UHGV virus genome: UHGV-1515682
Direction: 5' to 3' (one strand)
Source of the DNA: a virus
DNA: 40,877 nt
This document shows, in pieces, positions 6,203 to 40,877 of the stretch (positions are counted from its first letter, which is position 1; each line of letters begins with the position of its first letter). The notes beneath the pieces are model-generated. The model was not told the DNA's origin, ran no database searches, and was given only the letters and a program-made list of their open reading frames with translations. The position numbers and the translations under genes were made by a program.

Positions 6203-6217
6203 TTACCGTTGAGGTAA
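6203..6217. promoter_or_regulatory. Dyad operator-like site ttaccgttgaggtaa (OL-proximal)
   Basis: Perfect TTACC-N5-GGTAA; overlaps -10/+1 of predicted leftward promoter. Confidence 0.55.
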
Positions 6218-9283: not shown

Positions 9284-9298
9284 TTACCTGATGGGTAA
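9284..9298. promoter_or_regulatory. Dyad operator-like site ttacctgatgggtaa
   Basis: Perfect TTACC-N5-GGTAA; 62 bp upstream of site 9346. Confidence 0.5.
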
Positions 9299-12768: not shown

Positions 12769-12811
12769 GCATGGTACTATTACCACAACGGTAACTATTA
12801 CCACGGTGGTT

Positions 12812-13408: not shown

Positions 13409-14880
13409 AAGATACAGCGTTATCTCCTGAAGAGCAGTTGATCGAGGATATTGCAGGGTTCACTCACGATCCGCTTGGTTATGCCCTCTATGCGTTCCCG
13501 TGGGGGGAAGAGGGGACTGAACTGGCACATGCCACCGGTCCACGTCAGTGGCAGGCCGATGCGTTCCGAGAGATACGTGATCACCTGCAGAATCCAGAGA
13601 CGCGCTATCAGCCGCTTATGCTGGCACGCGCTTCTGGTCACGGTATTGGTAAATCCGCATTCATCTCAATGCTGATCAACTGGGGCATGTCCACTTACGA
13701 GGATTGTAAGGTCGTGGTGACCGCCAACACCGACAACCAGCTACGAACGAAGACCTGGCCGGAAATTATCAAGTGGTCGAACCTTGCTATCACGAAAGAC
13801 TGGTTTACCTGTACCGCTACCGCGATGTACAGCAATGACCTAGGGCACGACAAGCGGTGGCGGGCTGACGCAATACCCTGGTCTGAGCACAACACCGAGG
13901 CATTCGCCGGACTACACAACGAGCGCAAACGCATCATCGTGGTGTTTGATGAAGCGTCGAACATTGCGGATCTGGTGTGGGAAGTTGCCGAGGGTGCGCT
14001 TACGGACGAAGACACTGAGATTATTTGGGTGGCGTTCGGAAACCCTACACGTAACACCGGGCGTTTTCGCGAATGTTTCCGCAAATATAAACACCGCTGG
14101 AAAACTGCGCAGATTGACAGCCGGACGGTGGAAGGCACTAACAAACAGCAGTTGCAGAAATGGGTTGATGACTACGGGGAAGACAGCGACTTCGTTAAAA
14201 TCCGTGTGCGCGGCATATTCCCTGATGCATCTGAATTGCAGTTTATCCCTACCGGTCTTACTGATGAGGCAATGAAACGGGTGGTAACCGCTGCGCAGGT
14301 TGCACATGCTCCGGTGATAATCGGCGTTGACCCGGCATACTCCGGCGTTGATGACGCTGTGATATACCTGCGGCAGGGGCTGCACAGTAAGGTGCTGTGG
14401 ACCGGCAACAAGACCACTGACGATCTGATTATGGCAAAGCGTATCGCTGACTTTGAAGACCAGTATCAGGCTGACGCGGTGTTCATCGACTTCGGTTACG
14501 GTACCGGGCTGAAGTCAATCGGTGACGGTTGGGGGCGCACATGGCAACTTGTTCCGTTCGGTGGCGCGTCTACTGACCCGCAGATGCTCAACAAGCGTGG
14601 GGAGATGTTCAACTCATGCAAGACATGGCTGAGGCTGGGCGGCATGCTGGATGACCAGGAAACAGCGGACGACCTGTCGGCGGCAGAGTACAAAGTTCGC
14701 GTGGACGGTAAAATCGTTATCGAACCGAAGGAAGATATCAAAGAGCGGCTTGGGCGTTCTCCTGGTAAAGGCGATGCGCTACTGCTGACGTTTGCGTTCC
14801 CTGTGTCGAAGCGTCTGCGAATTCCCGGGCAGCAGAACCAGCAAGGCAAGGCGCTTACCGAGTACGATCCATATGCTTAG
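13405..14880 (+). CDS. Terminase large subunit
   Basis: 491 aa; Walker A-like ASGHGIGKS, ATPase plus nuclease regions; GTGA overlap with small subunit. Confidence 0.9.
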   Translation: MKDTALSPEEQLIEDIAGFTHDPLGYALYAFPWGEEGTELAHATGPRQWQADAFREIRDHLQNPETRYQPLMLARASGHGIGKSAFISMLINWGMSTYEDCKVVVTANTDNQLRTKTWPEIIKWSNLAITKDWFTCTATAMYSNDLGHDKRWRADAIPWSEHNTEAFAGLHNERKRIIVVFDEASNIADLVWEVAEGALTDEDTEIIWVAFGNPTRNTGRFRECFRKYKHRWKTAQIDSRTVEGTNKQQLQKWVDDYGEDSDFVKIRVRGIFPDASELQFIPTGLTDEAMKRVVTAAQVAHAPVIIGVDPAYSGVDDAVIYLRQGLHSKVLWTGNKTTDDLIMAKRIADFEDQYQADAVFIDFGYGTGLKSIGDGWGRTWQLVPFGGASTDPQMLNKRGEMFNSCKTWLRLGGMLDDQETADDLSAAEYKVRVDGKIVIEPKEDIKERLGRSPGKGDALLLTFAFPVSKRLRIPGQQNQQGKALTEYDPYA

Positions 14881-15695
14881 TCTTTATTTTTATCATCGAA
14901 ACCTGATAATCCAGATAGAACACCAAAGTTATTAAAAACGTTTGGCTTACCAGATTTTAATCCGGATAAGTTGTGTTGCTCCAAAAAGTTGCTAATTGTT
15001 TGGCCGTTGCCAAGTGCAAGGCTTTTTATTTGAGATTTTTCAGGGTATTTGAGTTTGTATTCGTCGAAATCATTTTGGAGGGTCTTATATGCCTCATTCA
15101 TTCTTCCCAGAGTTTCCGATATCTCTTTTAATGAATGATTTAGAGCTGCTAACTGAGCACTGGCGGATCTCAATTCGTCATCTTTAGCTTTCAACTCGGC
15201 AGTCAATTCCCCCATACTATTCTTTGATCGAATAATCTCTTCTTTCATCTCTTGGATGTCTTTTTCCGCGCCAGTCTTAACTTTGTCGTATGTAACATCT
15301 TTTTTAGCCAATAACCTCTGCAGTCTGGTTTCACGCTGGATTTTTCTTGCCTTCAGGTGATTTTCGATTGAGTCATTATTATCAAGAGGCTTTGCTTGCC
15401 ATACGTTAATGATATTGTTTACCCATGGTAATAGGCAGCAGATAGCAATTACAGATAAGCATGGATAAAACATAACAGTTTTCCATGTGCTGTTATCTGA
15501 GATATATGAAATTTTATCTATTATGTTTGATTTGCTAAAAAATAGATAAAGAATTGATTTCCAGTTGAAGGCGCACCAGGACATAACAAAAGCACCAAGC
15601 ACAGGGTTTTTGGCTCGATTCACGGCAGTATTGGCAGTAGATAAAAACAGCTCTTTAAACGATTCAAACATGCTAATTACCTTGAAGTTTTTCAT
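14877..15695 (-). CDS. AT-rich cargo gene: membrane-anchored coiled-coil protein of unknown function
   Basis: 272 aa from ATG 15695 (MKNFKVISMF); two predicted TM helices then long coiled coil; opposite strand to flanking late genes; low GC. Confidence 0.6.
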   Translation of the reverse strand: MKNFKVISMFESFKELFLSTANTAVNRAKNPVLGAFVMSWCAFNWKSILYLFFSKSNIIDKISYISDNSTWKTVMFYPCLSVIAICCLLPWVNNIINVWQAKPLDNNDSIENHLKARKIQRETRLQRLLAKKDVTYDKVKTGAEKDIQEMKEEIIRSKNSMGELTAELKAKDDELRSASAQLAALNHSLKEISETLGRMNEAYKTLQNDFDEYKLKYPEKSQIKSLALGNGQTISNFLEQHNLSGLKSGKPNVFNNFGVLSGLSGFDDKNKD

Positions 15696-15699
15696 GATT

Positions 15700-15714
15700 A
15701 TACCTTTAAGGTAA
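15700..15714. promoter_or_regulatory. Dyad operator-like site atacctttaaggtaa adjacent to cargo gene start
   Basis: ATACC-N5-GGTAA (one mismatch) 5 bp upstream of ATG 15695. Confidence 0.45.
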
Positions 15715-15767
15715 TTTGCGGTCATCAAGCAAAAAAATGCCCGGCGAACCGGGCGAACTGGAAGCAA

Positions 15768-15790: not shown

Positions 15791-15917
15791 ACGGGTTTAC
15801 AGCATGAAGTCATCGCAATGGCGTCCTGCTGTAAAAAGGGCGGTGATAGTCCTTCAAGGGAAACCATCACCGCCAAGCACCTGGAACTTCTGGCATCACG
15901 GTCCTTAGGCGTGATTC

Positions 15918-15994
15918 TGGCGTGGCATGCAGGATTCGAACCTGCGACCAACCGCTTAGAAGGCGGTTGCTCTGTCCAACTGAGCTAATGCCAC
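15918..15994 (-). tRNA. tRNA-Arg (anticodon UCU)
   Basis: Hand-folded cloverleaf: acceptor GTGGCAT/ATGCCAC, D-arm GCTC…GAGC, anticodon stem ACCGC/GCGGT with loop CTTCTAA, T-arm GCAGG-TTCGAAT-CCTGC, discriminator G, encoded CCA. Confidence 0.85.
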
Positions 15995-16315
15995 AACGCT
16001 GAGAGCACTTAGCCTGTTAAGGCGCCACACTTTGTCGCGGCTCCATAAATGCTCTCATCGTTGTACCCTCGTCTCTTCCGAGGCGTCACACCGAATCGCC
16101 GGGATGGTGAATCCCGTGCGCGGAATAAAACCGCTCGACTTGCACATTCCGGCTACCTGGTTCGTTTGCCCGAGCAAGGGAGGGTGCCCCTTAAACGGAT
16201 CCAGACCGCTATCGGCGCATGTGCCATACGCCGTACTGCTCAAAATAAAAGCTCACTCCACCTGTTTAATTTAACGACAAGCCAGTCAGGTTAGTAACCA
16301 GAATGAGCTCTTTAG

Positions 16316-16330
16316 TTACCTGAAAGGTAA
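16316..16330. promoter_or_regulatory. Dyad operator-like site ttacctgaaaggtaa upstream of head gene operon
   Basis: Perfect TTACC-N5-GGTAA; same sequence as site 35925. Confidence 0.5.
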
Positions 16331-16420
16331 TAATTCACGCGTTAAATGTCAACTTTCTACGATAAATAAATCATATGTGGTTAAATTGGTAATAATTTAA
16401 TTGCGTACGGAGTCATTGAT

Positions 16421-16641: not shown

Positions 16642-18321
16642 ATGGCGGAAACAACTAAAGAGCGATTGAACAAACAGTTCGCACAACTTGAAAGCGAGCG
16701 TCAGTCGTTCGAGCCGCACTGGCGCGAGTTGAGTGATTACATCAACCCGCGTGGTTCCCGCTTTCTGACTTCTGAGGTCAACCGTAACGATCGACGCAAT
16801 ACACGCATTATTGATTCGACCGGGACTATGGCGGCGCGAACTCTCGCCAGCGGCATGATGTCAGGCATCACAAGCCCCGCGCGTCCGTGGTTTCGCCTGG
16901 CTACGCCAGATCCTGAAATGATGGATTATGGCCCTGTTAAGTTGTGGCTTGAGGCGGTGCAGAACCGCATGAACGATATGTTCAATAAGTCGAATCTCTA
17001 CCAGTCTCTTCCGCAGTTATACGGAAGCCTCGGCACATACAGCACCGGTGCAATGGCGGTACTGGAGGATGACGAGGACATCATTCGCACAATGCCATTC
17101 CCGATAGGCAGTTACTACCTGGCTAACTCACCTCGTGGCAGTGTGGACACCTGTTTTCGCAAGTTCTCTATGACTGTTCGTCAGCTTGTTCAGGAGTTCG
17201 GGCTAAATAACGTCAGCGAATCCGTAAAAAGCATGTGGGAAAGCGGCACCTACGAGAAGTGGATTGAAGTGATGCATTCGGTTTACCCGAACATTGACCG
17301 CGATACATCGAAGCTGGATAGCAAGAACAAGCCATTCAAATCGGTTTATTACGAGGTTGGTGGCGATAACGACAAGTTGTTGCGTGAGTCCGGATTCGAT
17401 GAGTTTCCAATTATGGCTCCGCGCTGGGAAGTTAACGGCGAAGATGTTTATGGATCATCATGCCCGGGTATGCTGGCGCTTGGACCTGTTAAGGCATTGC
17501 AGCTTCTCCAGAAGCGCAAGTCGCAGTTGATTGATAAAGCCACCAATCCGCCGATGGTTGCTCCGACTTCCCTCAAGAATCAGCGCGCCTCCCTTCTTCC
17601 TGGCGACATCACGTATATCGATCAGATTACTGGTCAGGATGGTTTCAGGCCTGCTTATCTGGTTAACCCCAGTACAGCAGATCTGGTAGCAGACATTCAG
17701 GACACTCGCCAAATCATTAACAGCGCCTACTTTGTCGATCTGTTCATGATGTTGCAGAACATCAATACCCGCTCGATGCCTGTTGAAGCAGTGATCGAAA
17801 TGAAAGAAGAAAAGCTTCTGATGTTGGGGCCGGTTCTGGAGCGTCTGAACGACGAATGTCTTAATCCTCTCATTGACCGCGCTTTCTCGATGATGGTGCG
17901 TAAAAACATGCTGCCGCCACCGCCTGACGCGATGGAAGGCATGCCCCTGAAGGTCGAATACATTTCCGTCATGGCTCAGGCGCAGAAGTCTATCGGCCTG
18001 TCCAGTCTGGCGTCTACGGTCAACTTCATTGGTCAACTTGCGCAAGCGAAACCAGAAGCTCTCGACAAACTCAACGTTGATCAGGCGATCGATGCATTCG
18101 CTGATATGTCCGGAGTGTCTCCAACCGTCATTGTTCCGCAGGAACAGGTTGAGCAGGCTCGCCAGCAACGGGCACAGCAGCAACAGCAGCAACAAATGAT
18201 GGCGATGGGAATGGCGGCGGCACAGGGCGCCAAGACGCTAAGCGAAGCTAAAACTTCGGATCCGAGTGTTTTGTCAGCTATGGCGAATGCAGTTAGTGGT
18301 CAGGGTGGGCAATCACAATGA
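16642..18321 (+). CDS. Portal (head-to-tail connector) protein
   Basis: 559 aa; size and position ahead of scaffold/capsid; C-terminal Gln/Ala-rich tail. Confidence 0.65.
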   Translation: MAETTKERLNKQFAQLESERQSFEPHWRELSDYINPRGSRFLTSEVNRNDRRNTRIIDSTGTMAARTLASGMMSGITSPARPWFRLATPDPEMMDYGPVKLWLEAVQNRMNDMFNKSNLYQSLPQLYGSLGTYSTGAMAVLEDDEDIIRTMPFPIGSYYLANSPRGSVDTCFRKFSMTVRQLVQEFGLNNVSESVKSMWESGTYEKWIEVMHSVYPNIDRDTSKLDSKNKPFKSVYYEVGGDNDKLLRESGFDEFPIMAPRWEVNGEDVYGSSCPGMLALGPVKALQLLQKRKSQLIDKATNPPMVAPTSLKNQRASLLPGDITYIDQITGQDGFRPAYLVNPSTADLVADIQDTRQIINSAYFVDLFMMLQNINTRSMPVEAVIEMKEEKLLMLGPVLERLNDECLNPLIDRAFSMMVRKNMLPPPPDAMEGMPLKVEYISVMAQAQKSIGLSSLASTVNFIGQLAQAKPEALDKLNVDQAIDAFADMSGVSPTVIVPQEQVEQARQQRAQQQQQQQMMAMGMAAAQGAKTLSEAKTSDPSVLSAMANAVSGQGGQSQ

Positions 18322-32980: not shown

Positions 32981-33613
32981 TTAATGCAGTTTATCTTTGC
33001 TTATAACCAGTAGTCTGTGGGTATGCACATCTTTATCACTGCCCCAACAGAAATCAGCCCACTGGCTATAGAAATCATCCCATGATGTCATGAAGCTAAG
33101 AGGTCTATCTTCTTCAGAGCCATCTGAAACGTATACATTATATCCTGGGGTGTTTATAGCCCAAGAAATCATTCTTTCCCAGAATCTTCTCCCATCGATT
33201 GTTTGTTGCTCATCAGATACAACGATCGCATATTGCTCTAGGAAGAACTGAAAAAAAATCTGAGGCAAACCATGAACAGCACGGTCATGAATAACATTAG
33301 GCGTACGCCATACCATGATCTGCGTACATGTTCTTTTGGCTTCGACGATATCTTCCCGAAAGATTAACTTAACCGCATACACCGTTTCTGGAGTATCGCT
33401 GGTAGTAATCATTCTGTAATGATCGCCATTACAAGATTTTACAAGGCGATAACCATAAGGTGTTGTGAATCCCGGAAGAACGAAGTCAACCACACCTTTC
33501 GCTAAGTAGCTTTCGGTGTGACTAGTGTTCTTCTCAGACATGTTCAGTTTTCTATCGAAATCTGCTTCTGGGATAATGTATGGCATCGCTTTTCTTGTTG
33601 TATTTGTTCTCAT
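32981..33613 (-). CDS. Cargo protein of unknown function (210 aa)
   Basis: AT-rich ORF with own terminator and operator-like site 60 bp upstream; no recognisable motif. Confidence 0.55.
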   Translation of the reverse strand: MRTNTTRKAMPYIIPEADFDRKLNMSEKNTSHTESYLAKGVVDFVLPGFTTPYGYRLVKSCNGDHYRMITTSDTPETVYAVKLIFREDIVEAKRTCTQIMVWRTPNVIHDRAVHGLPQIFFQFFLEQYAIVVSDEQQTIDGRRFWERMISWAINTPGYNVYVSDGSEEDRPLSFMTSWDDFYSQWADFCWGSDKDVHTHRLLVISKDKLH

Positions 33614-34445: not shown

Positions 34446-34721
34446 AGTGATCACCTTTGTAGTTAGGTTAATCACCACTACCGACGCCAATCGGTTGGTG
34501 GTGAACTGTGCAGGGTTGGCGTAACCGGCTACAAAGGACCCGGCGCACCTTTCGGTGCCCCCACACAGCCCACCATAGAATAGGTGCGCTTTACACATAA
34601 AAAAACCGCTTATGCGGCATATGTGCCTCTGTAGTAATCCGGGACGCCAATCCCGGCACTGGATTTTGCCAGTGCCCGATTACTATGGCACAAGAGGAGT
34701 GCGATGTAAATTTACCGTAAA

Positions 34722-34736
34722 GGTAATGATAAGCGC
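34722..34736. promoter_or_regulatory. Dyad operator-like site ttaccgtaaaggtaa
   Basis: Perfect TTACC-N5-GGTAA in divergent region between ant and 34840 gene. Confidence 0.5.
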
Positions 34737-35924: not shown

Positions 35925-35939
35925 TTACCTGAAAGGTAA
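35925..35939. promoter_or_regulatory. Dyad operator-like site ttacctgaaaggtaa
   Basis: Perfect TTACC-N5-GGTAA upstream of LexA box. Confidence 0.5.
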
Positions 35940-40768: not shown

Positions 40769-40877
40769 TGTGCACAGAAAACCCCCAGCTAGGCTGGGGG
40801 TTCCGGAAAGCTTTCAGCTTTGAGCCAGTTATTAAAACCCCTTTTGATTTGTTAAAACACCTTGCGGTCTGGCAACT

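Follow-up and report, generated by a model that had tools for sequence, protein, structure and literature searches.

A conserved pseudoknotted RNA encoded upstream of a phage tRNA-Arg(UCU) gene is shared by epsilon15-like, lambdoid, and P1-like phages

Introduction

The put RNAs of the lambdoid phages HK022 and HK639 suppress transcription termination in cis, without phage proteins and in dependence on the beta' zinc-binding domain. Other phage RNAs are released from longer transcripts: RNase P generates the C4 RNA of P1 and P7 from an operon leader, processing of an early-left operon transcript yields DicF, and T4 derives its stable RNAs C and D (species 1 and 2) from tRNA transcripts. Here, we describe an RNA encoded in a 40,877-nucleotide (nt) stretch of viral DNA (UHGV virus genome UHGV-1515682; the whole stretch is referred to below as the window), in which approximately 320 bp upstream of a tRNA-Arg(UCU) gene is the minus-strand template of a structured RNA of approximately 240 nt. 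The original prediction for this locus had offered a degenerate second tRNA, a processed leader, or another small RNA as possible identities of the upstream region. The last two were close to what was found, namely, a conserved structured RNA on the tRNA strand, and the first has not survived. What it did not mention is that this RNA belongs to a large family that lambdoid, P1-like, and epsilon15-like phages have in common, mostly without an adjoining tRNA.

Results

Fold of the RNA

The core of the RNA (16236-16059) comprises hairpins P1 to P4, a pseudoknot, and approximately 50 invariant junction bases; a long helix, P5, follows. In transcript order, its elements are as follows.

16213..16233, minus strand: P1, a 9-bp hairpin, CGGCGUAUG-GCA-CAUGCGCCG (covariation and single-sequence fold)
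16152..16210, minus strand: invariant AGCGGUC and then the variable hairpin P2, closed by GC..UCUG / CAGG..GC (16209/16152)
16139..16157, minus strand: invariant 19-nt junction GGUAGCCGGAAUGUGCAAG (alignment of 28 representatives)
16098..16139, minus strand: P3 three-way junction, with variable P3a (16134-16120) and hairpin P3b, GGGAuucaccaUCCC (16115-16101) (covariation)
16085..16100, minus strand: conserved junction GGCGnnnnGGUGUGAC, of which GGUG (16092-16089) pairs with CACC (16109-16106) of the P3b loop as the pseudoknot
16067..16083, minus strand: P4, hairpin CCUCG-GAAGAGA-CGAGG (covariation)
15993..16064, minus strand: P5, long helix ACAACGAUGAGAGCA ... UGCUCUCAGCGUUGU, 16064-16050 with 16007-15993, with a variable insert at 16049-16008

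Alignments of the family consist of invariant blocks split by hairpins that vary in length and sequence, as expected of a structured RNA. The covariance model, which was based on an alignment of 28 hand-picked representatives, gave scores of 141 bits for the window copy (minus strand, 16236-16059, all 160 model positions) and 112 to 163 bits for the family members. In the MAFFT-based alignment of the 28 representatives, 94.4% of pair cells are paired, and 60 cells are changed on both sides, compared with 19.2 in shuffles (0 of 500 shuffles reached the observed count). Among 98 distinct model-aligned sequences, the corresponding values are 95.8% paired (87.1% in shuffles) and 282 double-change cells (99.4 in shuffles, none of 500 reaching 282), and slid controls were 28 to 46% paired for both alignments. 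The 98-sequence alignment was fitted to the structure and thus leans toward it; the count from the MAFFT-based alignment is free of that bias. Pairs changed on both sides occur among the 98 sequences in every helix except the 3-bp P3 stem. The fold is thus maintained by compensating changes across sequences that are approximately 70% identical and come from three phage groups. The window copy has all of the features by which we delimit the family (i.e., P1, AGCGGUC, P2, GGUAGCCGGAAUGUGCAAG, P3/P3a/P3b, the pseudoknot, GGUGUGAC, and P4).

Individual helices show the same pattern. In P1 (97.4% of cells paired), pair 8/20 is GC in 65 sequences and AU in 32, and pair 6/22 is seen as G.U, G-C, and A-U. 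RNAalifold proposed a long-range alternative for P1 (GCACAU/AUGUGC), which was set aside, both of its strands being invariant; the local hairpin was kept because covariation supports it. P2 is 99.8% paired, with a closing pair (34/88) that is C-G in 49 sequences, U-A in 48, and unpaired in 1, and its interior varies in length and sequence. The junction GGUAGCCGGAAUGUGCAAG has a single deviation in the 28-sequence alignment (A for G in RCS47); when loci were sought with 5' anchors rather than with the 19-mer, one of seven new loci (L260, ...GGGAUG...) deviated in it. P3 is 99.3% paired, and P3b is 98% paired, with three pairs changed on both sides. In the pseudoknot helix (99.5% paired), pair 145/165 is CG in 75 sequences, AU in 19, and unpaired in none, and the AU cases may all come from a single clade. 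Five pairs of P4 are changed on both sides (e.g., CG 49 / GC 41 and UA 65 / CG 25).

P5, whose final two bases are bases 1 and 2 of the tRNA, forms a 17- to 19-bp duplex in 11 of 12 sequence variants through compensating changes (AAGAGCA/UGCUCUU, GGAAAAGGCG/CGCCGUUUCC, and AUCAAAGAGCG/CGCUCUUUUUGAU). Its 3' strand in the window, UGCUCUC, is boxA-like. Phage P1 itself has no P5.

The hairpin cgggatggtgaatcccg (16100-16116), which the original prediction had called T-arm-like, is P3b (GGGAuucaccaUCCC) when read on the minus strand. It is a real and conserved stem-loop, and it is not a T arm: the loop (UUCACCA or CUAACCA) is not a T-loop and pairs with downstream GGUG/GGUU as the pseudoknot. Separately, the P5 insert of four relatives (L008, L009, L014 [SPN1S], and L022) holds two perfect T-loop hairpins, CTGGTTCAATTCCAG and GTCCGTTCGATTCGGAC; ARAGORN made no tRNA call on them, and they could be tRNA remnants or T-loop structural modules.

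G.U pairs are frequent in the family and are compatible with the minus strand only, and every annotated neighboring gene or tRNA is co-oriented with the RNA. Therefore, the active molecule is the minus-strand transcript. The GC richness and hairpin content noted earlier for this stretch were borne out: the GC content is 0.54 to 0.57 at 15900-16299, compared with 0.33 to 0.42 in the AT-rich flanks on either side, and the minus strand of 15995-16240 folds at -101.6 kcal/mol (z = -3.46; 0 of 200 shuffles equally stable). The plus strand of the same interval gives z = -2.75.

Distribution of the family

A sensitive BLAST search of phage genomes with 15995-16330 retrieved 86 records from three phage groups: (i) epsilon15-like podophages of Escherichia, Salmonella, Klebsiella, and Enterobacter; (ii) unrelated lambdoid phages, including mEp460, cdtI, 2H10, Ayreon, Stx2c and Stx2a phages, and mEp390, with one member recorded as a Stenotrophomonas-infecting phage; and (iii) P1-like phages (P1, P7, D6, SJ46, and RCS47). 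An exact scan of IMG/VR with the 18-mer GTAGCCGGAATGTGCAAG identified at least 119 contigs. Among 5,426 complete Escherichia coli genomes, 1,838 contain a match, at 1,921 places on chromosomes and 548 on plasmids; 39 of 40 sampled records have no annotation under it. Among 120 loci listed by a loose gapped pattern scan of genome contigs, 119 were chance matches in GC-rich genomes and 1, from Kosakonia sacchari, was real.

Rfam 15 has no match overlapping the core in the window at an E value of ≤10. The sole overlap with 15995-16330 is a chance-level match to ceN46, a nematode snoRNA, on the opposite strand (16190-16328; 15.4 bits; E value of 2.2), and scans of four relatives (L014, L001, L004, and L017) gave nothing over the element at an E value of ≤1. 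Covariance scans of the locus thus recovered the tRNA-Arg, as had been anticipated, and no Rfam family for the region upstream. Literature searches covering put-like RNAs, structured prophage RNAs, P1 ban transcripts, N-less lambdoids, and the sequences themselves yielded no account of this RNA, although older work may have described it. That it represents a widespread structured RNA family absent from Rfam 15 is well supported.

Each phage record carries one copy, and a second copy near pR was looked for and not found. An exception to the single copy is a prophage (L036) with two copies on its minus strand (4960-4799 and 4155-3992; 157.6 and 118.1 bits), which flank an opposite-strand ORF (open reading frame) inserted in the pL leader, downstream of a cI-like gene. 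A second departure is epsilon15 itself (L005, 2447-2537, minus strand; 39.5 bits), which retains only P1 and the 5' half of P2. A deletion has taken out the remainder of the RNA together with the tRNA and the first terminator, fusing what is left to the terminator before gene 50.

Genomic contexts

In 28 loci of epsilon15-like phages, of which the window is one, P5 runs directly into tRNA-Arg(UCU), which lies at +164 to +305 relative to the motif. In 20 loci of P1-like phage-plasmids, the RNA begins 14 nt after tRNA-Ile(CAU) and precedes ban; in P1, it lies within the C1-controlled, RNA-gene-rich ban operon, alongside three tRNAs and a dicF-like region.

The lambdoid phages form the largest group. 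Here, the RNA lies 45 to 60 nt past a promoter-operator located directly behind cI and its terminator, which places it at the very beginning of the pL transcript. A co-oriented upstream ORF is present in 107 loci, and in 62 of them, the nearest such ORF falls into one BLAST-linked CI-like cluster. Nine divergent repressor sequence types were checked, and all have a helix-turn-helix domain, an S24 peptidase domain, or both. Since at least nine repressor types stand at the same place, the link to pL has outlasted many exchanges of the immunity region. No N-like domain was recognizable in the first pL genes that were checked.

Terminators commonly follow the RNA. In the lambdoids, one lies between the RNA and the first pL gene, often after a conserved GCUGUGUGUAGUC; mEp460 has terminators in this interval. 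In epsilon15, the terminator abuts the ribosome-binding site of gene 50 and leaves no room for a promoter. Within ≤600 nt downstream in 68 non-redundant contexts, we counted 56 terminator-like hairpins in the sense orientation and 26 in the antisense orientation, with at least one in 39 of the 68.

Three further features were observed downstream of the core in some members. First, in nine loci (L001, L007, L008, L016, L025, L034, L067, L068, and L082), P5 is followed by a hairpin, UGAAU-GCGCA-GGCUGA-UGCGC, with compensating variants GCACA/UGUGC and GGCGG/CCGCC. This hairpin follows GUUGUGG in lambdoids and Tyrion, in a boxB-like position, and occupies the place taken in the window by the tRNA. 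Second, in L098 (approximately +105 to +141 from the motif) and L042 (approximately +100 to +135), the core is succeeded by a bidirectional-terminator-like hairpin and then an rrn-type boxA, which is perfect in L098 (GCTCTTTAACAA) and has one mismatch in L042 (GCTCTTTAATAA), beside an inserted opposite-strand gene. Third, in 27 loci (e.g., L017 1855-1974 [minus strand], L023, L025, L047, L088, and L106), the element in the lambdoid pL leader is followed by a second conserved module, consisting of a hairpin, GCUGUGUGUAGUCUU, and an intrinsic terminator. The L017 module matched the full Rfam model of RprA (50.2 bits; E value of 1.8e-5), under the gathering score of 70, and 23 of 24 bases are identical to the 3' region of E. 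coli RprA. The module may be an RprA-like phage small RNA, or one may have given rise to the other.

The RNA-tRNA unit of the window

The window represents a Uetakevirus prophage, of the phiV10/epsilon15 type, and the 721 bp around the locus match phiV10, O157 typing phages 9 and 10, TL-2011b, and relatives at 98% identity. The minus-strand unit lies between the plus-strand large terminase gene (end at 14880) and the portal gene (start at 16642), a place where the small genes differ among epsilon15-like phages. Besides the RNA, it comprises the following.

16316..16352, minus strand: predicted early promoter of the RNA-tRNA unit, read from the sequence (-35 TTGACA 16352-16347, 17-nt spacer, -10 TACCTT 16329-16324)
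16234..16315, minus strand: 5' leader from the predicted transcription start to P1, deduced from the promoter position
15918..15994, minus strand: tRNA-Arg(UCU) with an encoded CCA end (ARAGORN; Rfam RF00005, 73.3 bits, threshold 29)
15839..15874, minus strand: first terminator-like hairpin after the tRNA, a 14-pair stem and then CUUUUU (consensus scan; -17.2 kcal/mol in a second scan)
15731..15754, minus strand: second terminator (hairpin 15754-15739), GCCCGGUUCGCCGGGC and then AUUUUUUU (consensus scan)
14880..15725, minus strand: downstream cargo unit, with an operator-like palindrome (15714-15700), promoter-like ATGACC-17-TATAAT (15725-15697), and an AT-rich ORF

An operator-like palindrome, TTACCTTTCAGGTAA (16330-16316), overlaps the -10 element of the predicted promoter. 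TTGACA-17-TACCTT and the palindrome are also kept in SPN1S and epsilon15, and 16352-16324 probably acts as the promoter of the RNA-tRNA unit. The 5' leader is partially conserved, in epsilon15-like phages only. The palindrome TTACCnnnnnGGTAA has 16 copies in the window (≤1 mismatch), compared with 0.65 expected (e.g., at 6203-6217, 9284-9298, 12780-12794, 15700-15714, 16316-16330, 34712-34726, and 35925-35939), and looks like a phage repressor operator spread over many promoters. One such copy overlaps the -10 element of the RNA-tRNA promoter, and another precedes the cargo ORF. In the epsilon15 record, a repressor site and an IHF site are annotated in the corresponding intergenic region.

The tRNA had been predicted on the minus strand with its own terminator, and both parts agree with the ARAGORN and RF00005 calls and with the two hairpins at 15874-15839 and 15754-15739, the second of which is kept in phiV10-like loci. 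It is the sole tRNA that ARAGORN calls in the window (as tRNA-Arg(TCT)), is encoded opposite to the terminase and portal genes, and is annotated in O157 typing phages 9 and 10 and phiv142-3. It is an ordinary member of its kind, with nothing unusual, and like the phage tRNA-Arg(UCU) argO of Stx phages and E. coli argU, it reads AGA. E. coli uses AGA approximately 2 times per 1,000 codons. In the ORFs of the window, AGA makes up 8.1 per 1,000 codons and 12.7% of Arg codons and is clustered in AT-rich genes, accounting for 4 of the 8 Arg codons of 14877-15725 and for 10 of the 14 of 32981-33613. Because AGA is overused in these genes, the earlier proposal that the tRNA helps to supply AGA decoding is plausible.

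The cargo ORF (start at 15695 or 15671; stop codon at 14877-14879; GC content of 0.37) encodes a protein with a hydrophobic N-terminal part, and its comparison with Pfam gave only sub-threshold, weak coiled-coil-type matches. Genes in the cargo position elsewhere are unrelated (a Phage_gp49_66 family gene in phiV10 and a DUF551 gene in Tyrion).

Elsewhere in the window, Rfam matches at the gathering level were C4 antisense RNA (34494-34580, minus strand; 79.5 bits) and isrK (34599-34675, minus strand; 76.8 bits), along with STnc490 (40780-40877, plus strand; 102 bits), which is cut by the window end. The C4/isrK pair is also present in mEp460, on the pR side (L001 4851-5039).

Discussion

Comparison with described systems

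The put RNAs resemble the family in being cis-encoded just past pL in lambdoids in which no N has been found, with terminators downstream, and in their first hairpin, of which the older stem I model shares CGGCG...AUGCGUCG. They differ in that put is approximately 70 nt long with two stems, whereas the family core is 155 to 185 nt long with five helices and a pseudoknot. Moreover, the family is single-copy, with none after pR, and also occurs beside tRNAs in P1-like and epsilon15-like phages. This comparison concerns the pL-leader position, which the lambdoid members occupy without a pR copy; the podophage context of the window lies outside it.

Likenesses to nut sites and the rrn leader include the position in the pL leader, the P5 3' strand (UGCUCUC/UGCUCUU), which is similar to boxA, and GGUGUGAC and the downstream GCUGUGUGUAGUC, which resemble the GU-rich boxC. 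The hairpin GCGCA-GGCUGA-UGCGC of many lambdoid members stands after P5 at the place of boxB, and L098 has a perfect rrn boxA. On the other hand, there is no recognizable N-like protein, the boxA-like bases are paired in P5 and replaced in D6-type members, the tRNA of the window stands in the place of the boxB-like hairpin, and nut sites have no large structured core. A lambda-type nut site (a CGCUCUUA-like boxA, boxB, and N) was accordingly rejected for the window: the boxA-like bases are paired, and there is neither a boxB-like hairpin in the window nor an N-like domain in the first downstream genes of relatives.

C4 (RF01695) and DicF are comparable as regulatory RNAs within repressor-controlled phage operon transcripts that host RNases release. 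However, the family has no sequence or model similarity to either, and C4 is 77 nt long with known targets in its own operon. T4 RNAs C and D are likewise structured non-tRNA RNAs cotranscribed with phage tRNAs; they are 120 to 140 nt long and confined to T4-like phages, whereas the present family lies mostly away from tRNAs.

Possible role in cis-acting antitermination

We tentatively propose that the RNA is a cis-acting, put-like leader that renders RNA polymerase resistant to terminators. Antitermination is suggested because the RNA comes first in repressor-controlled early transcripts, terminators follow, and N is unrecognized. Under this proposal, transcription in the window would start at a repressor-controlled sigma-70 promoter (16352-16324), and the RNA would be the first part of an early transcript running into the tRNA. 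The nascent RNA would fold and remain bound to the RNA polymerase that transcribed it, in the mode of the HK022 put RNAs, possibly with host Nus factors recruited through the boxA-like and boxC-like segments. The resistant polymerase would then pass the terminators at 15874-15839 and 15754-15739, and read-through from the early promoter would reach the cargo gene (14880..15725). In the lambdoid relatives, the terminator passed would be the one between pL and the first early-left gene. RNase P, cutting at the 5' end of the tRNA, would split the structured RNA from the tRNA. More broadly, it is conceivable, if rather doubtful, that the family is a new and large class of processive antiterminators made of RNA only (or of RNA plus Nus factor), or of other RNAs that bind RNA polymerase, and that temperate phages of three unrelated lineages use it where their early transcripts begin.

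The lambdoid phage LLS lacks N, and a put-like RNA has been surmised there; its Q protein is closest to Q of 2H10 (Zheng et al., Genome Res 2025, PMC12315714). We found that 2H10 carries the structured RNA. Weak resemblances point in the same direction, namely, those of the P5 3' strand (UGCUCUY) to boxA, of GGUGUGAC to boxC, and of the P1 hairpin (CGGCGUAU...AUGCGUCG) to put stem I in its older model, the last being a short post hoc match. The perfect or near-perfect rrn boxA behind the core of L098 and L042 is a further one.

Several observations weigh against this proposal. We infer the function from position alone. BLAST searches for a homologue of the HK022/HK639 put RNAs gave chance matches only, and the covariance model finds no HK022 or HK639 putL, even at an E value of ≤10. 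Unlike putL/putR or nutL/nutR, the element has a single copy per phage record and none on the pR side. In the window, two strong terminators follow, and the cargo gene behind them apparently has its own promoter and operator; therefore, read-through would gain little there. P1 has no evident terminator separating the RNA from ban. The boxA-like bases are taken up in the P5 helix, and unrelated sequence stands in their place in D6-type members. Epsilon15 is viable although most of its element is deleted, and downstream sense terminators are equally to be expected of a stand-alone RNA gene.

Alternative explanations

Almost as good an explanation, although we consider it somewhat unlikely, is a processed, stable, trans-acting early RNA whose invariant single-stranded junctions bind and divert a conserved host component. 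Its ends would be set by RNase P at the 5' end of tRNA-Arg in the window, by 3' processing of tRNA-Ile in P1, and by the transcription start and P5 or the terminator in lambdoids; candidate partners include the RNA polymerase holoenzyme, Rho, RNase E, Hfq/ProQ, and a tRNA-targeting defense nuclease. The genomic contexts suit such an RNA. It adjoins tRNA genes in two unrelated groups (28 tRNA-Arg and 20 tRNA-Ile(CAU) loci), the P1 copy lies among other RNA genes, each phage record has one copy, and the RNA-tRNA unit of the window has its own predicted promoter and two terminators. Approximately 50 bases are invariant in phages that share no neighboring protein, which suggests a conserved host partner. 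The RprA-like, Hfq-type 3' module found after the element in several lambdoid leaders also agrees with this explanation, as do the precedents of C4, DicF, and T4 RNAs C and D. However, it leaves unexplained the consistent first-after-pL position across nine repressor types and how lambdoids without a recognized N-like protein pass the terminator before the first gene. A search for antisense pairing of the invariant segments with 16S, 23S, and 5S rRNA, the spacer tRNAs, and the rrn leader gave nothing above shuffled controls; complementarity to the rrnH operon transcript was not above chance, with longest runs of 6 to 8 nt (6.7 to 7.6 nt in shuffles).

It is improbable that the element is an RNA-processing element, i.e., a self-cleaving ribozyme or a structure that directs cleavage of, or stabilizes, the early transcript, including the adjacent tRNA. 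The complex pseudoknotted fold with strict junction nucleotides and variable peripheral stems is a pattern typical of ribozymes, and the RNA occupies varied positions within transcripts, often next to tRNAs; known small ribozymes are common near tRNAs in phage genomes. The epsilon15 record also predicts an RNase III site in the homologous leader, though on the other strand. Nevertheless, no Rfam ribozyme family matches, the core of 155 to 185 nt exceeds most self-cleaving classes, and we could name no candidate cleavage site.

Very little probability attaches to a riboswitch-like sensor that couples a metabolite or ion to downstream termination. The lambdoids do have a conserved, multi-stem, aptamer-like fold in a 5' leader before an intrinsic terminator. 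However, this terminator lies 100 to 250 nt past the core and does not overlap it, the downstream genes have no common theme, and there is no common expression platform because the tRNA follows in the window and ban follows in P1.

A degenerate tRNA, a remnant of a tRNA cluster, or a functionless relic spread by recombination can scarcely be maintained. Adjacency to a tRNA, one hairpin with a 7-nt loop, and the true T-loop hairpins in the P5 insert of some relatives are in its favor. Nonetheless, neither ARAGORN nor RF00005 matches anything in 15995-16330, even at an E value of ≤10, which refutes the degenerate tRNA; the UUCACCA/CUAACCA loop lacks A58 and forms the pseudoknot, the fold is held by compensating changes, and most members have no tRNA nearby.

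A small protein-coding gene can be dismissed, in line with the original view that no credible ORF lies upstream of the tRNA: although ORFs of 62 to 81 amino acids overlap the region in the window and a few records annotate a coding sequence or hypothetical protein (e.g., mEp460_037 and UTI89_C5094), the lengths of 96 distinct cores are spread over the three residues modulo 3 (34, 38, and 24), no frame is conserved among them, motif-anchored frames are open in at most about a third of the 96 sequences, and conservation tracks helices and junctions rather than codons.

Significance

With five covarying helices, a pseudoknot, and approximately 50 invariant bases, this family is among the better supported uncatalogued structured RNAs of E. 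coli phages, and the structured RNA merits entry in RNA family databases. It extends across lambdoid, P1-like, and epsilon15-like phages of Escherichia, Salmonella, Klebsiella, Enterobacter, and Kosakonia, and roughly one in three sequenced E. coli carries it, in prophages and P1-like plasmids, mostly unannotated in the sampled records. A role in trans or as a ribozyme would imply a conserved target in the host or a new catalytic fold. Should it be an antiterminator, phages would have only their second known RNA-only class, beside put, and the expression of the early-left operon in lambdoids that seemingly lack N would be explained.

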